Shown here: piece by piece, positions 41,411 through 54,159 of the stretch
How the letters are laid out: every line of letters begins with the position of its first letter
How positions within the stretch are numbered: the first letter of the stretch is position 1
DNA from: Candidatus Hydrogenedentota bacterium
GTDB lineage: Bacteria > Hydrogenedentota > Hydrogenedentia > Hydrogenedentales > SLHB01
Reading direction: 5' to 3'
Length of the DNA: 64,000 nt
Assembly: GCA_045863295.1 (NCBI GenBank)
Contig: BTWA01000027.1
Coordinates: 1 to 64,000 of the forward strand
Translations under genes and position numbers: made by a program
The notes under the pieces: model-generated
What the model was told of the DNA's origin: nothing
The model's input: only the letters and a program-made list of their open reading frames with translations
The model's database searches: none

Positions 41411-41740
41411 CTAGAAGAATTCGAGCTGGGCTGGCGGTTCCTCTGGTGGTTTTCGGCGTTTTCCCCAGAAAACGCGCATGCGCTCAAACTGTTTTTCCGT
41501 GATGACGATAAGCCGAACCTCGCCATCCGGGGGAAGCGATTTTTCGACACGCTTGACGTGTACATCCACATTCTCCTGACTGGGGCAGTGCCGGATATAG
41601 ACCGAATACTGCATTTGCGCGAACCCATCTTTCAACAGGCTCGTACGGAAGCGCGTGTACTCGCGCCGCGCATCCTTGGTATCCGTGGGCAAATCGAACA
41701 TGGCCACTATCCACATGAAACGGTACTTGCTAAGCTCCAT
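41411..41740 (-). CDS. cas2: CRISPR-associated Cas2
   Basis: YRFMWIVAMFDLPT...FRTSLLKDGF.QMQYSVY...ITEKQF. Between cas1 and the array. Confidence 0.96.
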   Translation of the reverse strand: MELSKYRFMWIVAMFDLPTDTKDARREYTRFRTSLLKDGFAQMQYSVYIRHCPSQENVDVHVKRVEKSLPPDGEVRLIVITEKQFERMRVFWGKRRKPPEEPPAQLEFF

Positions 41741-41746
41741 GGCCGT

Positions 41747-42649
41747 CTAATCCATGCTGGACTCCGGGATCCAAAGGTTCGAATCGCTGCCCTGAATACA
41801 CCTGACCAGTGAATACGCCATTTTCTGGACGCCGTTCATCATGGGACATGTATCGCCCTCGAAAACAACCGTGCCGTGGAGGAGGCCAAGCAGTTCACTC
41901 TTCGCCTTCGGTTGAATCGTGCCGATACCGGCCTCATCCAATTTGCGTACTGCCGCATCAACCATGGGGCGCAACGGCTCGACCAAATCATCAGCGAGGC
42001 AAAAGGCATTGGACCGATTGCAGTGGTGAATGCCGAGCGCGGTGTTGAGTCCCGCGCCCACAAGGGCGCGCGCCACACTCGCCCTCATAAGGGCATAGCC
42101 ATAATTCAGCAGCGCGTTGATGCCGTCCCCATCGGGATCGCGGCGAAACGCGCGGCCCTCGCCAAGCCAATTGGCCCAGTACAGCTTCGCCGCCTGCGCT
42201 TCCATGTTTGAGGGATCCCCGGACCGCACAGTACGGCTCATCTCCATCAACCTGCGGCGAGCCGGCGTATCGCCCCCAAGATTGCCGGCCTGCGCCCGAA
42301 TCTTCGCGACCACCAATTGCCGCCATAGGCTCTTTCGTACGGGTTTAGACAAGGCAATCTGATCATGAATGCGGGACACCACTTCGAGATGGTCTGAGAG
42401 AGGCAAAACCATGCCCACCGGCAGATGATTCCCGCCACACAACACGACAACGGTACCATGTTTCATCAACGTTGCCAGACCATGATGCGAATACGTCACT
42501 TGCCTTTGATCGACAACGAGGGCGCCCAAATCCTCGCAGGGAATTGAAACAGGCGGCCCCTCTCGCTCAGGAAACCGCAATTCAAGCTGGTCCAATGTTG
42601 CACTGATGTACGCAGGGGCATTCGAAACCTCGACAACGCGTTTAATCAT
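41747..42649 (-). CDS. cas1: CRISPR-associated Cas1 (type II), 300 aa
   Basis: EAQAAKLYW, NALLNYGY, GIHH.N..N.F.LADDLVEPLRP. Start MIKRVVE overlaps the cas9 stop. Confidence 0.96.
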   Translation of the reverse strand: MIKRVVEVSNAPAYISATLDQLELRFPEREGPPVSIPCEDLGALVVDQRQVTYSHHGLATLMKHGTVVVLCGGNHLPVGMVLPLSDHLEVVSRIHDQIALSKPVRKSLWRQLVVAKIRAQAGNLGGDTPARRRLMEMSRTVRSGDPSNMEAQAAKLYWANWLGEGRAFRRDPDGDGINALLNYGYALMRASVARALVGAGLNTALGIHHCNRSNAFCLADDLVEPLRPMVDAAVRKLDEAGIGTIQPKAKSELLGLLHGTVVFEGDTCPMMNGVQKMAYSLVRCIQGSDSNLWIPESSMD

Positions 42650-45600
42650 GCTCAACCCTGATAACTGCGCCCAGCGGACTGACGCGCACCTTATAGGGGC
42701 CTTCAGACGCAGTCGGACCGCAGTTGGCCAGGTCAGCGGGCGATACAGACCAACGTTCCTGGTCTGCGGCACTGCGTGCATCCCAGTCCGGCGCCAGGAC
42801 AATACTGATGCTCTTGCCATCGAGTTCAAGCTTTTTTACAACAAAATACCCAGTTTCGCTGCCTTGCTTAGGTCTTGCATGGATCATTTCCCCTTCAGCG
42901 AGCGACATAACAAACTGCAACTTGTCGCCATGATTCTTTTGAATAAGCAACGTATTCGCCGATTCGTCCACTCCTTTAAGGCGCTGGATTGCTTCATACA
43001 TGCTTACACATCTGCCTGACCACCTTCCGTTGGAACGGTTCCGAAGTATTTCGACATGATGATTATTGCCCCCTATGTAAACACGCCTGGGCTTTCCGCG
43101 GGACTGAATTACAACGGGGTTCTTGATTGTGCGCAAGACTTTCACTGCAGTTATCGGCACCCCGCTCGGCATCCGAAAGGCACCCGACTCCAACAGGCGT
43201 TGTACATCCTTTGGGGAGAATTCATCCGCGGAAAGATGGTTCGCCTGCATAATCTCACGCAGTATGCGCCGCATTTCCAAATCGCGAACCAACCCTCCCT
43301 TTCCTAGGGGCGGGTCCATAAGCACAGTGCATCCATTATCATTCTCGATTGGAACGGGCATGCGGAGCATCTTTGGGGTCAGCTTTACGAGGGGGAGACG
43401 AGTCACAAACACCTTGGCTTCCATATCGACCGTTCCATACAAAGTCTCTTCATGCAATGCGCCGACAAGGCGGCGTTTCACAGGTCGGTGACATATGACC
43501 AGCCCCCGTGTTTCATTGTCACCGAAAACATGGCCCATGACTTGGGCGCGGAACGTCTCCAAACTCGTCCACGGTTTAGGAACCGGCAATGTATCGCGCT
43601 TTTGCCGCTCACCTGTCCGTTTGTAGGTCTCCTCCTGGCGTGAAGCAATATCGGCCAACTCTTTCACGATAGCGGGACCACTTAACGCGATCACGACGGC
43701 ATCAATCGCGTGATGGTAATGATTCGCCCGGGTCTTCGATGCCGGCTTCGCACCGTCCTCCGATGGCGCGGCGACTTCATGATAAAGTTGCCAATCTGCG
43801 CGCAAAATTGCCGTGTACCGCCCCTTCGTGAATAGAATCTGCCGCCGGTTGCGGGGCGCATCGTGAAAGAGGGCCTCTTGAAGGTAGGCGCTCACTTCTC
43901 GCGCGGCATAGGACGTGTCCGACAACTGAGATTCGCGCCAAGCAGCTACATCCGCCTCTTTGACATCTCTGTCTAGATTATCCCTCTTGCGCTTGAAATC
44001 CGACCGCCGAAAATAGCTGGTGTCGGATTTCGTCGGCTTGGCTAAGTGAGCAAAGCGCTGCTTAAACGTGTCAACCAACCCTTTGCGCGCTATCCACTCT
44101 TTGGCGGTCTCGTTGCCCTTGTTGCGGTTGCAATCCCTATGGCAGAGCACCCGGTTATTGAGGCCATCCTCACCGCCACGGCTCTTGGGAATTACATGGT
44201 CGACTTCAACGCCATGCCCCCGCGCAGCATCGGTGTCGGACATCTGCTGGGGGGAGTCGCAGTAGGGACAAAGCCCTTTCTGCTGGCGCCAGAGCAGAAC
44301 GCGATCCTCGCCCCTGCGCCGTTGATTCTCATTGAGATTCTCCAACTGGTAGTCTTCGGCAATTTTCTTCCTGATCTTCTCCCGTTGCCTGTTCCGCGCC
44401 AGAATCTCATTTCGCACCTTGCCGCTTTGTTTGGCCTCGCGCGCCATTTCGATCACGACCCGGTCCGGCTTACGGCCAAACCGCCGCAGATACTCATTCA
44501 AATGCCGACGCACCTCGTGAATCGCTTTGCGGACAACGGGATTGGCCAGCATGGGGGCGGGCGGCAGCACATCAGCGTGCTTTTCCATGAACCGGCGCTT
44601 GGCTTTGTTCGCGCCCCTCAGGCGCAGAAGCGCCTCGGCTTTTTGCTCGCCAACCAATTCATTCAGCAATTCAATCAAATCAGCATCAACGGTGAACGCA
44701 TAGCGGGCGCGCTGTTCTGGCGTTGCGCTGCTTGCCGCATCTTTCGAGAATGCTTCGCGCGCTTCAGTAACGGAAGCCCCCAGGCGCATGTAAGGCAGTA
44801 GATTCAAGATGGCGTGCCGGGATAGACTGACTCTATTTTCCAGCTTGGGGCGTTTCTTCCATGCGTCATTAAGCTTTCCGGTGCTCTCTTCTGATAGGCC
44901 CCACCAGGCCCGGCACCCACCGGCAAGCCGCTCCCGATCTAACTTGACATCCGGATCGAACTTCTGGAGCGCCCGGTTTACGGATTCTTTGCGGCTTTCG
45001 TCGAAAGTGAACCATGTATCTTCACCGATTGCCCCAAGTACAATTTCGCGGTAGAACCAATCGGTGTTGATCTCCCGTTCCGCATCTGAATCCGTATTCA
45101 ACTCATAAAACGCGGCGACCTCGCGCCTGTTTATGCCCAAGGCCGTTCGGATTGTTTTACCGGTGGCCTTCTTCTGATTTCGGAGCGCGGCAATCACTTT
45201 CTCGCGCTCGCTGTCACTCAAGGCTCTCATTTCTTCGTCGTGCTTCCGAATACGGATATTGTTCACGTTTTCCAGAACCCGGAATTCTTGAGCGTGCATG
45301 TCAGCCATTGGGCAGCATTGATCGGTCGGCTCTAAATCACATCGGCCCATCGTTCCTGTTCGCCAATAGGACTTGCGCTGTTCAAATACAATGCCCTTGT
45401 GCCGGAAAGTGGCGTCAGGTTTGGGGTTGTCAAACTGGGTTCGAAACTCGTCGGTGAGTAATTCGGCCAGGACCCCTCCAATAGAAACCTGCTTTTGCCA
45501 GATTGCCTCAAACTCGTCCAGGATCATCTTCCGGGTGGCGTGAAACTCGTGGCTGTCACGCCGGTTTCGAATCGAACCATGTATGGCAAATGGCTGATTT

Positions 45601-46172
45601 TTTCTGTTAGTAGCTGGAGTTTGCCTTTCCACATATAGGCGGGCCATAGTTTGGCCAAAATGTTCGTCCTGCCGCCTGACTTTTTCCAGTTTGTCGATAC
45701 CAGCCTTGACGGCACCTTCTTCCTTGGACTTCCCGTCTTCCTCTTCCGCATTTTCGGCCGCTTCAGCTTCGTCCGATTCAGTGAGGATGCCAAATGCTCC
45801 TCTGCGCTGGTTCAGGTGAACCAAGAGCCGTCCAAACTCATGGGGCGTCAGCGCGCGCTGTAATGCGTCGGTCCTGAGTTCCCATGGATTTGTCCGCATC
45901 AGGTGATTGAAATCAGACTGGGTCTCTGGGAGTAGACCGTGCTCAACCAGAACCGCCCGCAGACGCTTCTTACGGCGTGCGCGCCGCTCAATAATCCTGC
46001 GCGATTGCCGCTTTGCTCTCCGCGCCTGATTCTTGGGGGCGCCGCGCTTGTTGCTGCTCTCCTCAACGCCAGCCGGGAATACACTTACACCGGCCACTAT
46101 TTCCCCAGTCTCCGTATCAACCCAAGCACTGCCAACGGAGTTGCTGCCGATGTCCAAACCTATAGAAATCAT
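42642..46172 (-). CDS. cas9: Type II-C Cas9, about 1176 aa
   Basis: RuvC-I GLDIGSNSVG, Arg-rich bridge helix, RuvC-II VIEMARE, HNH EVDHVIP...N...NRNKG, RuvC-III HYHHAIDA. GGAGG RBS before ATG 46172. No csn2 or cas4. Confidence 0.97.
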   Translation of the reverse strand: MISIGLDIGSNSVGSAWVDTETGEIVAGVSVFPAGVEESSNKRGAPKNQARRAKRQSRRIIERRARRKKRLRAVLVEHGLLPETQSDFNHLMRTNPWELRTDALQRALTPHEFGRLLVHLNQRRGAFGILTESDEAEAAENAEEEDGKSKEEGAVKAGIDKLEKVRRQDEHFGQTMARLYVERQTPATNRKNQPFAIHGSIRNRRDSHEFHATRKMILDEFEAIWQKQVSIGGVLAELLTDEFRTQFDNPKPDATFRHKGIVFEQRKSYWRTGTMGRCDLEPTDQCCPMADMHAQEFRVLENVNNIRIRKHDEEMRALSDSEREKVIAALRNQKKATGKTIRTALGINRREVAAFYELNTDSDAEREINTDWFYREIVLGAIGEDTWFTFDESRKESVNRALQKFDPDVKLDRERLAGGCRAWWGLSEESTGKLNDAWKKRPKLENRVSLSRHAILNLLPYMRLGASVTEAREAFSKDAASSATPEQRARYAFTVDADLIELLNELVGEQKAEALLRLRGANKAKRRFMEKHADVLPPAPMLANPVVRKAIHEVRRHLNEYLRRFGRKPDRVVIEMAREAKQSGKVRNEILARNRQREKIRKKIAEDYQLENLNENQRRRGEDRVLLWRQQKGLCPYCDSPQQMSDTDAARGHGVEVDHVIPKSRGGEDGLNNRVLCHRDCNRNKGNETAKEWIARKGLVDTFKQRFAHLAKPTKSDTSYFRRSDFKRKRDNLDRDVKEADVAAWRESQLSDTSYAAREVSAYLQEALFHDAPRNRRQILFTKGRYTAILRADWQLYHEVAAPSEDGAKPASKTRANHYHHAIDAVVIALSGPAIVKELADIASRQEETYKRTGERQKRDTLPVPKPWTSLETFRAQVMGHVFGDNETRGLVICHRPVKRRLVGALHEETLYGTVDMEAKVFVTRLPLVKLTPKMLRMPVPIENDNGCTVLMDPPLGKGGLVRDLEMRRILREIMQANHLSADEFSPKDVQRLLESGAFRMPSGVPITAVKVLRTIKNPVVIQSRGKPRRVYIGGNNHHVEILRNRSNGRWSGRCVSMYEAIQRLKGVDESANTLLIQKNHGDKLQFVMSLAEGEMIHARPKQGSETGYFVVKKLELDGKSISIVLAPDWDARSAADQERWSVSPADLANCGPTASEGPYKVRVSPLGAVIRVEHD

Positions 46173-46210
46173 TGCATTGCCTCCGCCCACGACGGCAATC
46201 CACTCATTTC

Positions 46211-46239
46211 TTGACACGACTAGTGTCGCATGATAGCAT
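46211..46239 (+). promoter_or_regulatory. sigma70 promoter of the tracrRNA
   Basis: TTGACA-N17-TAGCAT with extended TG, 7 nt upstream of the anti-repeat. Confidence 0.75.
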
Positions 46240-48358: not shown

Positions 48359-48871
48359 ATGGCCAGCAAGAAGATGATCGAGGCACTCAACAAACACGTA
48401 AACCTAGAGCTGTACTCGGCCTACATTTATGCTGCCATGGCGGCGTGGTTCGACGGCGAAAACATGCATGGGTTCGCCTCTTGGATGAAGGCCCAAGCCG
48501 GCGAAGAAGTCGGACATGCCGCGAAGATGTACAAATACATCCATGACGTGGACGGTCGCGTGACGCTGGAAGCCATCGAAAAGCCCCAAGATCGGTTCAA
48601 ATCCCCGCTCCAAGTATTCGAAGCGGCGTATGGCCACGAAAAGGTCGTAACCAAAGCCATCTACGCTTTGGTGGATCAGGCGATAAAGGAAGGCGATCAT
48701 GGAACCAATGCCTTCCTGCAATGGTTCGTCAATGAGCAAATCGAGGAAGAGGCCACGGCCTCCGATGTTGTGGGCCGGCTGAAAATGGCCGGAGATGCTC
48801 CGGGAGCGTTGTTGCTTCTTGACCGGGAAATGGGCGGCCGATCCGCCGGAGCCGGCGAATCCGAAGAATAG
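48359..48871 (+). CDS. ftnA: Non-haem ferritin
   Basis: LELYSAYIY, EEVGHA, HEKVVT, FLQWFVNEQIEEE. Confidence 0.93.
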   Translation: MASKKMIEALNKHVNLELYSAYIYAAMAAWFDGENMHGFASWMKAQAGEEVGHAAKMYKYIHDVDGRVTLEAIEKPQDRFKSPLQVFEAAYGHEKVVTKAIYALVDQAIKEGDHGTNAFLQWFVNEQIEEEATASDVVGRLKMAGDAPGALLLLDREMGGRSAGAGESEE

Positions 48872-49003
48872 TTGGTTCTGACGATTGGTGGGATGGAGGT
48901 ATCTTCATCCTACCTTTTTTTTGTCAACGTTGTCATTTTTTGTGCTGATCGCGAAGAGTCCTTTCAATTTTCGTCGGAATTCCGTTTTTCAAATCCCCTC
49001 AAC

Positions 49004-49033
49004 TTGACAATTCCTGTGTTCATTTCCTACACT
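49004..49033 (+). promoter_or_regulatory. Probable sigma70 promoter of the NifA-like gene
   Basis: TTGACA-N18-TACACT about 60 bp upstream of the start. Confidence 0.55.
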
Positions 49034-49092
49034 ATTGTCAATTCAACTAAGGAGCCATACCTTTCGGTGAAGTAGCCGGAAGGTTTTTCTAT

Positions 49093-50661
49093 ATGGGAAC
49101 AAGACAATCCTATCCAAAAATACGGCGCGACGTTTCTGAACTAGCGCTTTTGTTCGAGATAAGCCAGATCTTGGAAAGAAGTCTGGACCTGCGCGACGAG
49201 ATGGGGCACGTGCTGAGCGCCATTTCCGATAATACCGGTATGATGCGCGGCACCATTACGCTACTCAACCGCCATACCCACGAAATTTTCATTGAGGCCG
49301 CACATGGGCTTTCCACCACCCAGCGTGAGCGGGGTCGATACAGGCCCGGAGAAGGCATCACCGGGAGGGTTGTAGAAACCGGCCGACCCATCGCGGTACC
49401 TCGGATTTCTCAAGAACCGGCATTCCTGGACAAGACCCGTTCTAGAACCGAGCTTCAAAGGGACGAAATCTCCTTTATTTGCGTACCCATCAAGATCGGA
49501 AACGAGACCATTGGAGCCCTCAGCGTGGATCGGCTCTTTTCCGACACGGTGTCATTAGATGAAGACATGCGTCTTGTGACCATTATCGCGTCGATGATCG
49601 CCCAGGCCGTACGAATTCGCCAACGCGCCCAAGAAGAGCGTATGGCGTTGCTACAAGAGAACATGCGACTTCAAAACGAGCTGAAGGAGCGGTTTCGCCC
49701 CGCGAATATCATTGGATCTTCCAGGGCGATGCAAAAAGTATACGATCTTATACAACAGGTGGCTCAAAGCGATGCCACGGTACTTATCCGCGGTGAGAGC
49801 GGTGTAGGTAAGGAACTTGTTGCCAGCGCCATACACTACAACAGTTCACGTGCCAATTCTGCGTTCATCAAAGTCAATTGCGCGGCGTTGCCTGAAGCCG
49901 TTATCGAAAGTGAGTTATTCGGTCACGAAAAAGGCGCTTTTACGGGGGCCGTAAACCAACGCAAAGGGCGATTTGAACTTGCCCACGGCGGGACGATATT
50001 TCTGGATGAAATAGGGGATTTGTCACCCACCATGCAGGTTCGCCTGCTTCGGGTATTGCAGGAGCGGGAATTCGAGCGGGTTGGCGGAACAGATACCATT
50101 CGCGTGGATGTACGTGTAATTACGGCTACCAACCGTGACCTGGAAGTCGCGATGACAAAAGAGGAGTTTCGGCAGGACCTCTATTACCGCCTGAACGTTT
50201 TTCCCATTCATATTCCGCCGCTTCGAGAACGGAAGACGGACATTCTGGAATTGGCGAACTTTTTCGTTGAGAAGTACAGCCAGAAAGCCCATAAAAACGT
50301 GCGACGTATCTCGACGCCGGCCATAGACATGCTCAGCAGCTATCATTGGCCCGGCAATGTCCGTGAGCTGGAAAATGTCATAGAACGCGCGGTGCTTTTG
50401 ACGAACGACGATGTTGTACACGGCCATCATCTTCCCCCCACATTACAGACCGCTGAAGCCAGCGGAACCATAATGGAAGGCACTCTCGACGCTACACTTA
50501 ACAATGTCGAGCGCGAAATGATTATCGAGGCGCTCAAGAATGCTCGCGGGAATAAAGCCAAGGCTGCATCGGCCCTCGGTATTACCGAGCGCATTATGGG
50601 TTTACGGGTCAGAAAACACTCCATTGATACCCGAATGTATCGTTCTGCCAAGATTGTTTAG
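49093..50661 (+). CDS. NifA-like sigma54 enhancer-binding protein (GAF-AAA+-HTH)
   Basis: GAF ([20 protein letters not shown]), [46 protein letters not shown], Fis-type HTH. Confidence 0.93.
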
Positions 50662-50906
50662 TGCGGGACTCCGCCTCATGTCCCTATATTTCCTACCGAT
50701 TTGTTGTATCCCATCATTTCAAAGGAACATCCCTGTCGATTCTTCCACTTGTCTCGGCGTTTGCGCCGGATTTCCCTGATTGCGATTTTAATCTCGCCGG
50801 AAAGTCCACAAAATACTTATTTGTATAAACTTATGTTAAGTATTTCGCATATGTTTCAGGTATTCCTACGTGTTGCATAACCCTAAAATCACGTATGCTT
50901 TGGCGT

Positions 50907-50922
50907 TGGCACGTCTATTGCT
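50907..50922 (+). promoter_or_regulatory. sigma54 promoter of the degenerate EBP paralogue
   Basis: TGGCACGTCTATTGCT matches consensus TGGCAC-N5-TTGCW. AGGAG RBS and ATG 50946 follow. Confidence 0.85.
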
Positions 50923-50945
50923 GGTTTGGCTATCAGGAGTACAAC

Positions 50946-51929
50946 ATGGTTGCCTATCATCGGGCTGACTCGTCCCATCATGTCGACCCGGTGCCCGTTT
51001 CAGCTGCGGTCAGGGCTGTGGACGACCTCATTGCGCAGTTTGCCAAGGGTAGCACACCCATATTGATACGAGGTGAAAGGGGTACCCGGAAAGAGGATAT
51101 TGCGCGCGCCATCCATGTGCGGAGCCCGCAAGCGGATGGTCCTTTTATAAAGGTAAGTTGGGCGGAAGTAACCGAGTCCTTCGTGGAAGGAGAACTCTTT
51201 GGCTACAGTGAACCGACGGCCGCGATGGCCCTGTTATCCAAGCGGGGAAAATTTCAGGAAGCGGAAAAGGGGACCCTGTATCTTGAGGAAGTAAGCGACT
51301 TTTCAGCATCTACCCAAGGAAAGCTTTTGCGCTTCATTCGGAACGAGGGCTTGCAGCCTCTTGGGGCCATTTCTCCGGTCGATGTCGATGTCCGACTTAT
51401 ATTGGCCAGCAGTCAAGACTTGGAGCAATTGGTTGAACGAGGAAAGGTGCTCCGGGAACTCGTGGAAGAATTGTCGGCCTTTTCGATCCAGATTCCACCT
51501 CTGCGAGATAGGAAAACAGACATATTAAGCCTGGCGCAGCAATTCGTGCGTAAGCATGCACAGAAAGTGCGCAAGCCCACCCAACACATTTCCTCTCGTG
51601 CCATGAGTCTTCTTGTCAGTCATACATGGCCAGGCAATCTCGTGGAGTTGGAGCAGTGCATGGAGCGTGCGGTGCTGCTTTGTGACGAGAGTGTCATTGA
51701 CGTCCGGCACTTACCTCCTGCGTTACAGGAGCTGAATACGCAAGAAATTCAAGGAGAAACGCTTCAGGATACTCTCGATATCATTGAGCGTGCGCTCATT
51801 TTGGACGCCCTGCGCGCAGCCAAAGGAAACCGATCCCGAGCGGCCCAGATATTGGGGATAACCGAGCGATTGATGGGCCTTCGGGTCCGAAAATATTGCA
51901 TCGATCCAAGGGAATTCCGTACAAAATAG
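50946..51929 (+). CDS. Degenerate sigma54-EBP-like regulator (pseudo-AAA+ plus HTH, no sensor domain), 327 aa
   Basis: AAA+ scaffold recognisable, but Walker A/B, GAFTGA, the R-finger region and sensor II are altered. HTH nearly identical to the upstream paralogue. Confidence 0.88.
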   Translation: MVAYHRADSSHHVDPVPVSAAVRAVDDLIAQFAKGSTPILIRGERGTRKEDIARAIHVRSPQADGPFIKVSWAEVTESFVEGELFGYSEPTAAMALLSKRGKFQEAEKGTLYLEEVSDFSASTQGKLLRFIRNEGLQPLGAISPVDVDVRLILASSQDLEQLVERGKVLRELVEELSAFSIQIPPLRDRKTDILSLAQQFVRKHAQKVRKPTQHISSRAMSLLVSHTWPGNLVELEQCMERAVLLCDESVIDVRHLPPALQELNTQEIQGETLQDTLDIIERALILDALRAAKGNRSRAAQILGITERLMGLRVRKYCIDPREFRTK

Positions 51930-52277
51930 TACTTTTGCTTCAAAAATGTGCTGACAATTGAGGTTTTGGAGGTACGCTATTATTTTTGATAATATAGTTA
52001 AAGCTACAATTTTGTATGTTCAGTAATTAATATTGAAGCTTATAAACCGTTTTATGCGCTAAATTTCAATAATTTATAATATAGTCAAATATATTAATTC
52101 CAATGCTTGTTATAGCATAATGTAACAAAATACCATCTGGTAATTATCAAATTACTCCATTTCTACCATAATGTAGTCTTTCTTGCTGTCCACAGAAATG
52201 CCCTTTTCGGCAACGTATTTCGCAAGGTGTTCGTATTGAAATAGTTAGGAATCGCCTTTCCAGCACGGATCCATGGA

Positions 52278-52293
52278 TGGCACATCGATTGCT
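52278..52293 (+). promoter_or_regulatory. sigma54 promoter of amtB-glnK
   Basis: TGGCACATCGATTGCT (GG-N10-GC) about 80 bp upstream of amtB. Confidence 0.88.
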
Positions 52294-52373
52294 CTTGGAA
52301 CTCAATCCCTTCCTCATTTCGGGGTATTGCGGGCTGAACGTTGGTGTGCACAATGAAAGGAGATCCGTGAAAC

Positions 52374-53774
52374 ATGCGAAGCAGAATCAAATTGCCAATC
52401 CCCGCCCTCTTGGTGGTGGCTGTTCTGCTGGCGCTAGCGCCGGCAGTGTTTGCCCAGGAAGAGGCGGCCGCACCGCCACCCAGTGAAGTCGAAGTCCTTA
52501 CAACGAATTTGAACATTGTCTGGACGTGCGTCGCTGCATTTCTGGTTATGTTTATGCAGGCTGGATTTGCCTTGGTGGAACTGGGTTTGACGCGCGCGAA
52601 GAATGGTATCAACATCATGATGAAGAACCTGATGGACTTTTGCATCGGTTCGGTCGGCTTCTTCATGATTGGCTATGCGTTGATGTTCGGTCCTACCAAT
52701 GGGTTCTTCGGCACCGAAGGATTCTTCTTAAGCGCCATTGACTACAGCAGCGAATCGCCGTTTACGGATTGGAATTGGACATTTCTAATTTTCCAAACCG
52801 TGTTCTGCGCTACTGCCGCCACTATCGTGTCTGGCGCCATGGCCGAGCGGACCAAGTTTGTCGCCTATCTTTTGTATAGCGCTGCCATAAGTATCGTCAT
52901 TTATCCCATTTCCGGTTCGTGGGCGTGGGGAGGGCTCTTGAACGGCGGAGGGTGGCTGGAAGCGCCGGAAGGCGGCTTTCTCGCAAACGCGGGGCTTCCG
53001 GGTTTCTGCGACTTCGCGGGCTCAACTGTTGTGCACTCGGTGGGTGGCTGGCTCGCGCTGGCTGGCGCGATCGTGCTTGGTCCGCGCACCGGTAAGTATG
53101 GTCCCGACGGAACGCCGCGGGCCTTGCCCGGTCACAACATTCCCTTGGTGGCTTTGGGTGTCTTTATCTTGTGGTTGGGTTGGTTCGGTTTCAATCCCGG
53201 ATCGGCGACGACCGGCGACGGCACGATTGGCTATGTAGCCGTTACGACCAACCTTGCCGCGGCGTGTGGCGCGATCAGCGCGATGATTACGGCTTGGATT
53301 ATCTTCAAGAAACCGGAAGCAACCATGACTTTAAACGGTGCATTAGCCGGACTCGTGTCAATAACGGCGCCGTGCTACACGGTCAGCCCATTGGGTGCGT
53401 GCGCGATAGGTCTTATTGGCGGCGTCCTGGTGGTCATTTCAGTGATTGTGATTGATCGCGTTATCAAGATCGACGACCCAGTAGGCGCGGTTAGCGTTCA
53501 CGGGGTGTGCGGCGTATGGGGCACTTTGGCGTGCGGCCTGTTCAATCTGGAAGGAGGGCTGATTTACGGCGGCGGCGCGAAACAGTTGATCACTCAGCTT
53601 ATAGGCGCTGGCGCCTTCTTCGTGTGGGCGTTTGGCCTGGGCTTGATTCTCTTCTTCATTCTCAAAATGACGGTCGGTCTGCGTGTGAGCGCGGAAGAAG
53701 AGTTGAAGGGTCTGGATATCGGCGAACACGGTATGGAGGCCTACAACGGATTCCAGATCTTCACAACGCAATGA
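52374..53774 (+). CDS. amtB: Ammonium transporter
   Basis: [50 protein letters not shown]. Confidence 0.97.
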
Positions 53775-53817: not shown

Positions 53818-54159
53818 ATGAAACTGGTGATAGCCTATGTGCAACCAGACAAACTAAACGCCGTGAAGCAGGCGCTGCAAAGCAATTCAATTTCCAAGAT
53901 GTCCGTAACAAACGCCCTTGGATGCGGCCAGCAAGGCGGGTATCACGAGAGCTACCGAGGTACAGATATCGAGGTAAATCTGCTGAAGAAGGTCCGTTTC
54001 GAAGTTGCGGTCAACGACGATTTTGTGAAGCCCACGATCGACGCGATTATCAAAGGCGCGAAAACCGGTGAGATAGGCGACGGCAAGATCTTCGTGTTGA
54101 ATCTTGAACAATGCGTCCGGATCCGGACAGGCGAGGCAGGCTCGGCCGCTATCGGCTGA
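53818..54159 (+). CDS. glnK: PII nitrogen regulatory protein
   Basis: [39 protein letters not shown]. Linked to amtB. Confidence 0.93.

Follow-up and report, generated by a model that had tools for sequence, protein, structure and literature searches.

The stretch of DNA analysed here (the window) comprises 64,000 nucleotides of a Candidatus Hydrogenedentota bacterium, positions 1 to 64,000 of contig BTWA01000027.1 (assembly GCA_045863295.1). It encodes an activator of sigma54-dependent transcription, that is, a bacterial enhancer-binding protein (bEBP), directly followed by a shorter, motif-depleted paralogue that we call the twin, and by the genes amtB and glnK. The genes, promoters and candidate operators of this locus are given below in window coordinates; operators carry no strand, HTH stands for helix-turn-helix, and scores are those of a position weight matrix (PWM).

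49004..49033, forward strand: sigma70-type promoter of the activator, with -35 at 49004, an 18-bp spacer and -10 at 49028-49033 (10/12 consensus matches)
49027..49040: operator-like site, one mismatch away from TAC-N6-GTA; its left half coincides with the activator -10 box, and it is predicted to mediate repression (PWM 5.5, a weak site for this genome)
49093..50661, forward strand: activator, GAF-AAA+-HTH sigma54 activator of 522 aa with every motif intact (motif comparison, Pfam, TIGR01817)
50693..50706: operator-like site with a single mismatch, some 214 bp ahead of the twin sigma54 site (PWM 11.9)
50813..50826: exact TAC-N6-GTA, 93 bp upstream of the twin sigma54 site; AT-rich, low PWM score
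50907..50922, forward strand: twin promoter of consensus sigma54 (-24/-12) type, with a GGAG ribosome-binding site behind it (strict pattern match)
50946..51929, forward strand: twin, predicted sensor-less pseudo-bEBP of 327 aa with degenerate AAA+ motifs and a conserved Fis-type HTH (motif comparison, Pfam, predicted fold)
52004..52017: distal TAC-N6-GTA operator of amtB (-273)
52130..52143: TAC-N6-GTA operator of amtB (-147), position kept in relatives
52163..52176: best TAC-N6-GTA operator of amtB (-114), 33 bp from the -147 site (PWM 15.3)
52278..52293, forward strand: consensus sigma54 promoter of amtB-glnK (strict pattern match)
52374..53774, forward strand: amtB, ammonium transporter (domain and family profile matches)
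53818..54159, forward strand: glnK, PII protein (domain and family profile matches)

Activator and twin shared 138 identities over 312 aligned residues. The twin matched the Pfam sigma54-activator domain (PF00158, 134 bits), the lid and the Fis-type HTH; a GAF domain was found solely on the activator, as the original prediction had stated. Alignment bore out all six of its motif comparisons (Walker A, L1/GAFTGA loop, Walker B, arginine-finger helix, sensor II and recognition helix), including the identity of 13 out of 14 residues in the recognition helix. Among 26 bEBP-like open reading frames of the genome, the activator had this helix in common with the twin alone. The description of the twin as catalytically dead stood in part: the motif losses are present, but the window's twin retains lysine in Walker A and glutamate in Walker B. 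Nucleotide binding is therefore possible, and we infer the loss of catalysis from the other motif losses.

The same losses characterized the family. We compared 21 twins (308-333 aa, N-terminal sensory or receiver domain absent) with 46 activators; P0270-P0272 were dropped as near-duplicates, and ten relatives that lack GAFT but differ in architecture were inspected and excluded from the twin counts. The GAFTGA loop was present in 46/46 activators, while its phenylalanine occurred in none and its threonine in one of the 21 twins, and the L1 loop measured 8-15 residues in twins versus 14 in all 46 activators. The sensor II arginine, the switch asparagine and the sensor I asparagine were each found in 0/21 twins, and the two R-hand arginines were kept in 1/21 and 3/21, with glutamate at the second in 12/21. 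Walker residues were retained unevenly (Walker A lysine 12/21, Walker B aspartate 2/21, Walker B glutamate 18/21), and the trans arginine equivalent to NtrC1 R253 was retained in at least 80% of twins. Positions conserved among activators were kept by twins at 18/20 sites in the HTH, 22/47 in the lid and 31/98 in the alpha/beta domain; in the latter 38/98 were lost, among them positions in the stretch preceding L2 and in the arginine-finger helix. Twins further had conserved replacements of their own (R45, S71, W72, E74, T76, F79, E114). The predicted structure of the twin (mean confidence score pLDDT 83) suggested that the AAA+ domain and HTH are intact and that the L1 loop is disordered. The model was closest to NtrX, ZraR and NtrC1 (template-modelling (TM) score 0.90 to NtrC1, normalised by target), also matched PspF, and had Brucella NtrX (5m7p) as top Foldseek match. 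Full-length relatives (479-510 aa; P0183, P0194, P0202, P0226, P0238, P0265, P0269) with a similar HTH and a degenerate GAFTGA were also seen, three with GAF matches and two named from Acidobacteriota and Myxococcales; they may represent parallel loss.

Protein searches recovered the 21 short degenerate relatives, the window's twin included; those bearing a taxon name were from Hydrogenedentota, and most others carried no taxon. Of the phylum's 135 genomes (assigned to Hydrogenedentota by match names, many incomplete), 12 had the twin, forming one clade of six genera in two families, and 119 had an activator-type HTH. A scan of all species genomes retained 80 loci, nine of which carried the twin (seven labelled Hydrogenedentota, two Nitrospiraceae). 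A twin-specific DNA pattern found one partial twin at a contig end among metagenome contigs (L178), and plasmids gave no match at E 1e-60. The original prediction had proposed searching related genomes for the tandem pair: the twin lay directly behind the activator in 9/12 genomes, with the contig ending upstream in two and the activator elsewhere in one, and directly ahead of amtB-glnK in 7/12. The twin thus accompanies the activator more than amtB.

The reading frame was open in 12/12 twins. In a quick tree with long branches, the twins formed one side of a branch of 26 rows (SH-aLRT, Shimodaira-Hasegawa-like approximate likelihood-ratio test, 100). A position of the window's twin as sister of its own neighbour was rejected by the approximately unbiased (AU) test (p = 3.2e-10), whereas a basal origin, outside the activators of the phylum, was not rejected (AU p = 0.46). 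Ratios of nonsynonymous to synonymous substitution rates (dN/dS, Nei-Gojobori) were calculated after exclusion of 49/66 saturated twin pairs, including all pairs with the window's copy. Four unsaturated pairs gave 0.083, 0.090, 0.069 and 0.079, and the activator gave 0.012-0.029 in three comparable pairs among those used for the twin. Pooled by region over the four pairs, the values were 0.034 for the HTH, which is the most constrained twin region, 0.079 for the lid, 0.08-0.12 for the AAA+ core and 0.65 for the 13-column L1 loop, which is nearly free. Absent or decaying orthologues would have spoken for a dying copy; instead orthologues exist with open frames, shared motif losses and purifying selection, and the twin is a conserved family rather than a dying duplicate. 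Against this background the notion of a recent, decaying and functionless duplicate has next to no probability. Its patchy distribution (12/135), its long branches and one pair at dN/dS 0.24 would fit such a copy, and the open frames, the low dN/dS of the other four pairs (0.069-0.090), the motif losses common to the whole clade and the rejected sisterhood speak against it.

Strict sigma54 matches numbered 24 in the 6.3 Mb genome, and the sites at 50907 and 52278 were two of them, which agrees with the predicted intact twin frame behind its own consensus promoter. A sigma54-type site stood shortly upstream of 12/12 twins, nine of consensus form, and in 11 of the 12 a GGAG ribosome-binding site and start codon followed within 60 bases. 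The palindrome at 52163-52176, noted in the original prediction, was confirmed and recurs in relatives as TAC-N6-GTA, the AnfA consensus reported for Rhodobacter capsulatus (PMC7294313). In the 19 promoter regions (of 24) with a sigma54 match this motif was observed 26 times versus 0.72 expected, a contrast that is overstated because the regions are kin and the motif was chosen after viewing them. Independent support came from other phyla, where TAC-N6-GTA was present at 11/18 sigma54 matches near the activator, and from nif-linked NifA paralogues, where it was present at 0/5 nearby sigma54 matches. Exact operators occurred in 11/11 scored twin promoters, one each, and in the amtB promoters of scanned relatives they clustered near -148 and -115; the upstream sites of the window's twin promoter were weaker than the relatives' counterparts. 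Genome-wide, 4/24 strict sigma54 sites carried operators (about 0.7 expected), each with at least two, and among relaxed sigma54 matches 7/361 had an exact operator, which is not above the roughly 10 expected; the enrichment is limited to strict sites. No consensus for integration host factor was found in 20 promoter regions inspected. Sequence wiring therefore supports the predicted induction of the twin by the activator and a shared upstream activating sequence (sigma54 promoter 12/12, exact operator 11/11).

The activator contained GAF, sigma54-activator AAA+, lid and Fis-HTH domains in Pfam and scored 557.1 bits with TIGR01817 (NifA), above the cut-off of 528.85. The label NifA-like holds for this profile, but the operator is of AnfA type, and no nifH was found in the window's genome, where the best NifH-family match reached only 41 bits. 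NifA-type TGT-N10-ACA sites were likewise not found within 48801-52400, and the nif-linked paralogues of relatives formed a clade separate from the activator in a quick tree. AnfA of R. capsulatus (PMC7294313) and R. palustris (PMC12093980) is reported with the same GAF-AAA-HTH architecture and TAC-N6-GTA operator, a motif that is present at the predicted activator targets. The AnfA cysteine motif was not seen, as residues 1-200 of the activator translation hold just one cysteine, and unlike AnfA the activator has no nitrogenase to control, its predicted targets being amt, glnK and glnB-glnA. Because nifH is absent and paired or triple operators precede both amt operons and glnB-glnA in the window's genome, the activator is likely a general nitrogen regulator. 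Its input may be modelled on the PII control reported for AnfA (PMC12093980), by which analogy we infer PII control of its GAF domain. A glnD gene was present in the genome.

A route absent from the original prediction concerns the activator's own sigma70-type promoter, the -10 box of which is overlapped by an operator. The relatives' activators had the same promoter architecture. Among 41 activator loci (anchoring failed at nine of 50, which were left out) an exact TAC-N6-GTA lay upstream of 37/41 activator genes (2.5 expected), and the operator left half formed the -10 box in 21/41, namely in 8/9 twin-bearing, 9/18 twin-less and 4/14 other-phyla activators. A terminator-like hairpin was noted between promoter and start codon (49059-49084), with a regional hairpin count at chance level (6 versus 6.3). 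Directly upstream of the promoter lay a ferritin gene with a terminator-like hairpin (48359-48914), and no ferritin gene was among the long open reading frames listed for the relatives' loci at a 250-aa cut-off.

Sigma54 activators are known to be held in check by anti-activators unrelated to them (NifL, PspA, HrpV, FleN) or modulated by paralogues that are themselves active. The reading we favour, and hold to be somewhat probable, is that the neighbouring activator drives transcription of the twin, which in turn brakes the activator by sitting on the TAC-N6-GTA operators that both recognise. For a protein whose synthesis coincides with activator activity, which recognises the activator's operator and which is unable to contact sigma54, a brake would be the simplest role. 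Under nitrogen limitation the GAF-controlled activator would induce amtB-glnK, the second glnK-amtB, glnB-glnA and the twin. The twin would then build up and bind these operators unproductively, as a dimer or oligomer with its AAA+ body as a scaffold, ousting the activator from its enhancers; it would likewise bind where an operator overlaps the -10 box of the sigma70 promoter that serves the activator. Both the nitrogen regulon and expression of the activator itself would thereby be damped, by a negative feedback set by the activator's activity and not merely by its amount. The original prediction had placed this feedback on ammonium uptake. The circuit looks regulon-wide rather than amtB-specific, the twin adjoining amtB in 7/12 genomes. 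Binding of the same promoters by paralogues with similar recognition helices has been reported for VnfA1 and VnfA3 (PMC9542535).

Several observations weigh against such a brake. The twin was not seen in 123/135 genomes of the phylum, and the -10-overlapping operator is also present in 9/18 twin-less activators, so that the activator can likely autorepress alone. In the window neither the operator site at 49027 nor that at 50693 is perfect, and the window's own twin has no unsaturated partner for dN/dS; the fifth, very close twin pair (G005-G117) had a dN/dS of 0.24 with few changes. The AAA+ body of the twin is under purifying selection as well (0.08-0.12) and carries its own conserved substitutions (R45, S71, W72, E74, T76, F79), neither of which would be needed by plain competition for DNA. 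Finally, the induced Desulfovibrio vulgaris protein DVU2960, with its damaged GAFTGA, is reported to have failed to bind its activator's site (PMC4641369).

This conserved body would be accounted for if the twin acted as a dead subunit without arginine finger or GAFTGA in the activator's AAA+ ring, the HTH merely co-localising the two, which would also be negative feedback. The retained AAA+ fold (pLDDT 83, TM 0.90 to NtrC1) under selection, the glutamate at the second R-hand arginine in 12/21 twins and the trans arginine kept in at least 80% agree with this. So do reports that PspF R-hand substitutions kill the ATPase and yet give constitutive hexamers (PMC3419264), and that an inactive RedR form blocks the active paralogue (PMC10084136). 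Many subunit-interface positions have diverged, however, with 38/98 conserved alpha/beta positions lost, and the twin is 44% identical to the activator versus 97% between RedR1 and RedR2; we regard poisoning of the ring as unlikely. The chances are smaller for the opposite sign, an induced twin that raises or broadens activation, for instance by cooperative loading of the activator or by DNA bending, as FleT does for FleQ. The wiring is alike, since FleQ is reported to activate the fleT operon and FleQ/FleT then later genes (PMC7277832), and VnfA1 to induce a co-activator, VnfA3 (PMC9542535). The usual single operator at twin promoters, with two or three at amtB, would also suit a helper. The twin lacks, however, the GAFTGA loop, R-hand and sensor II with which to contribute, and other phyla have amtB with paired operators beside activators at a locus without twin. 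In the HrpRS heterohexamer both GAFTGA loops are reportedly required, a defect in either partner abolishing activation (PMC3105312), which argues against a positive role of the twin inside a ring.

The original prediction also raised a relay to sigma70 promoters, which would be activated by the twin in the manner of NtrC in Caulobacter and R. capsulatus, where it has no GAFTGA, or, reportedly, of VpsR. Several strong operators outside long open reading frames have no sigma54 match nearby. With strict patterns in one genome, however, only four of the 28 such strong sites had a sigma70 match within 330 bp, and none stood in a standard activating position. The only sigma70 context that is conserved places the operator over the -10 box, which is a repressing position, and the known cases retain a sensory domain that the twin does not have. 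Although action of GAFTGA-less bEBPs at sigma70 promoters is documented (10.1101/2023.06.06.543975), we consider this relay improbable.

TyrR is an AAA+ regulator without the sigma54-contact loop, Brucella NtrX has an AAA+ domain without it, and VpsR is said to be a GAFTGA-less bEBP that likewise serves as a DNA-binding regulator. Unlike the twin, these proteins and the NtrC just mentioned retain a domain of receiver or sensor type, and each alone regulates its sites. The GAFTGA-less NtrC of Caulobacter and R. capsulatus shares with the twin the use of an AAA+ protein without this loop as a DNA-binding regulator (10.1101/2023.06.06.543975). In Azotobacter vinelandii, with VnfA1/VnfA3 and AnfA, a nitrogen bEBP likewise activates transcription of its own paralogue, with similar helices and the same promoters, but VnfA3 is described as co-activating together with the accessory protein VnfZ (PMC9542535), whereas the twin, devoid of a sensory domain and of the activating motifs, is a predicted inhibitor. 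FleQ of Rhodobacter sphaeroides is reported to induce the N-terminally truncated second bEBP FleT from a sigma54 promoter, but FleT is without HTH and required for activation (PMC7277832, PMC10084136); in the twin the HTH is the most conserved part and GAFTGA is absent. HrpR/HrpS, a tandem pair (PMC3105312), and RedR1/RedR2 (PMC10084136) are described as paralogous bEBPs with unequal, partly degenerate functions and mixed oligomers, in which, unlike in the twin pair, GAFTGA is retained by each partner and the rings are active. The RedR inhibition is reported for engineered or uninduced forms, not for a dedicated dead paralogue (PMC10084136). In D. vulgaris, DVU2956 drives a sigma54 operon encoding DVU2960, which differs from the twin in its single GAFTGA substitution, in the reported lack of binding to the activator's site in electrophoretic mobility shift assays and in having no role assigned in that account (PMC4641369). 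Descriptions thus already exist of paralogues under induction (VnfA3, FleT), of an induced EBP whose loop is damaged (DVU2960) and of regulators without GAFTGA. In targeted literature searches that covered few subscription journals, we found no GAFTGA-less bEBP described as the induced partner of an intact same-helix paralogue, and no dead paralogue described as a feedback inhibitor or reported in this lineage.

Further features of the predicted regulon were noted. The amtB upstream region (51930-52373) had 36% GC versus 57% GC in the genome. The window's GlnK (53818-54159) has isoleucine at position 51, where the uridylylation tyrosine usually stands, and the GlnK on contig C14 keeps tyrosine. 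At G000:C4:145265-145525 (L184, L187) a consensus sigma54 promoter and two TAC-N6-GTA sites precede a 60-codon open reading frame without match in the other 134 genomes; this region may encode a small regulon member, either protein or RNA. At G000:C4:237132-237176 two divergent large open reading frames are separated by a pair of strong operators, spaced 31 bp apart; the N-termini of these frames presumably resemble ATP-grasp proteins. Beside amtB-glnK, the activator family with TAC-N6-GTA sites was also found in Planctomycetota and Thermodesulfobacteriota (L107-L139). The amtB of G029 was split over two frames (L033:608-2067) by a frameshift or assembly error. Apart from this regulon, the window held three minus-strand open reading frames of 109, 360 and 1191 aa at 41411-46217, which resemble cas2, cas1 and cas9.

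The twin is a real, conserved and lineage-restricted form of paired-bEBP regulation. A fuller scheme can be put forward only tentatively: a pseudo-ATPase anti-activator derived from the activator's gene, which would be induced by the activator, occupy its operators, shut its promoter and cap its AAA+ ring, with the remodelled pocket (R45, S71-W72, E74, T76, F79, E114) gating the brake through a new partner or ligand. It would act on an AnfA-like one-component nitrogen regulon, apparently undescribed and common to Hydrogenedentota, Planctomycetota and Thermodesulfobacteriota. If the feedback holds true, a conserved dead paralogue under the control of its activator would be a new feedback route and a pseudoenzyme regulator in bacterial transcription, and the twin would offer a natural dominant-negative tool for studies of ring assembly. 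The analysis also outlines a predicted nitrogen regulon, with its operator, targets and autoregulation site, for uncultured phyla.

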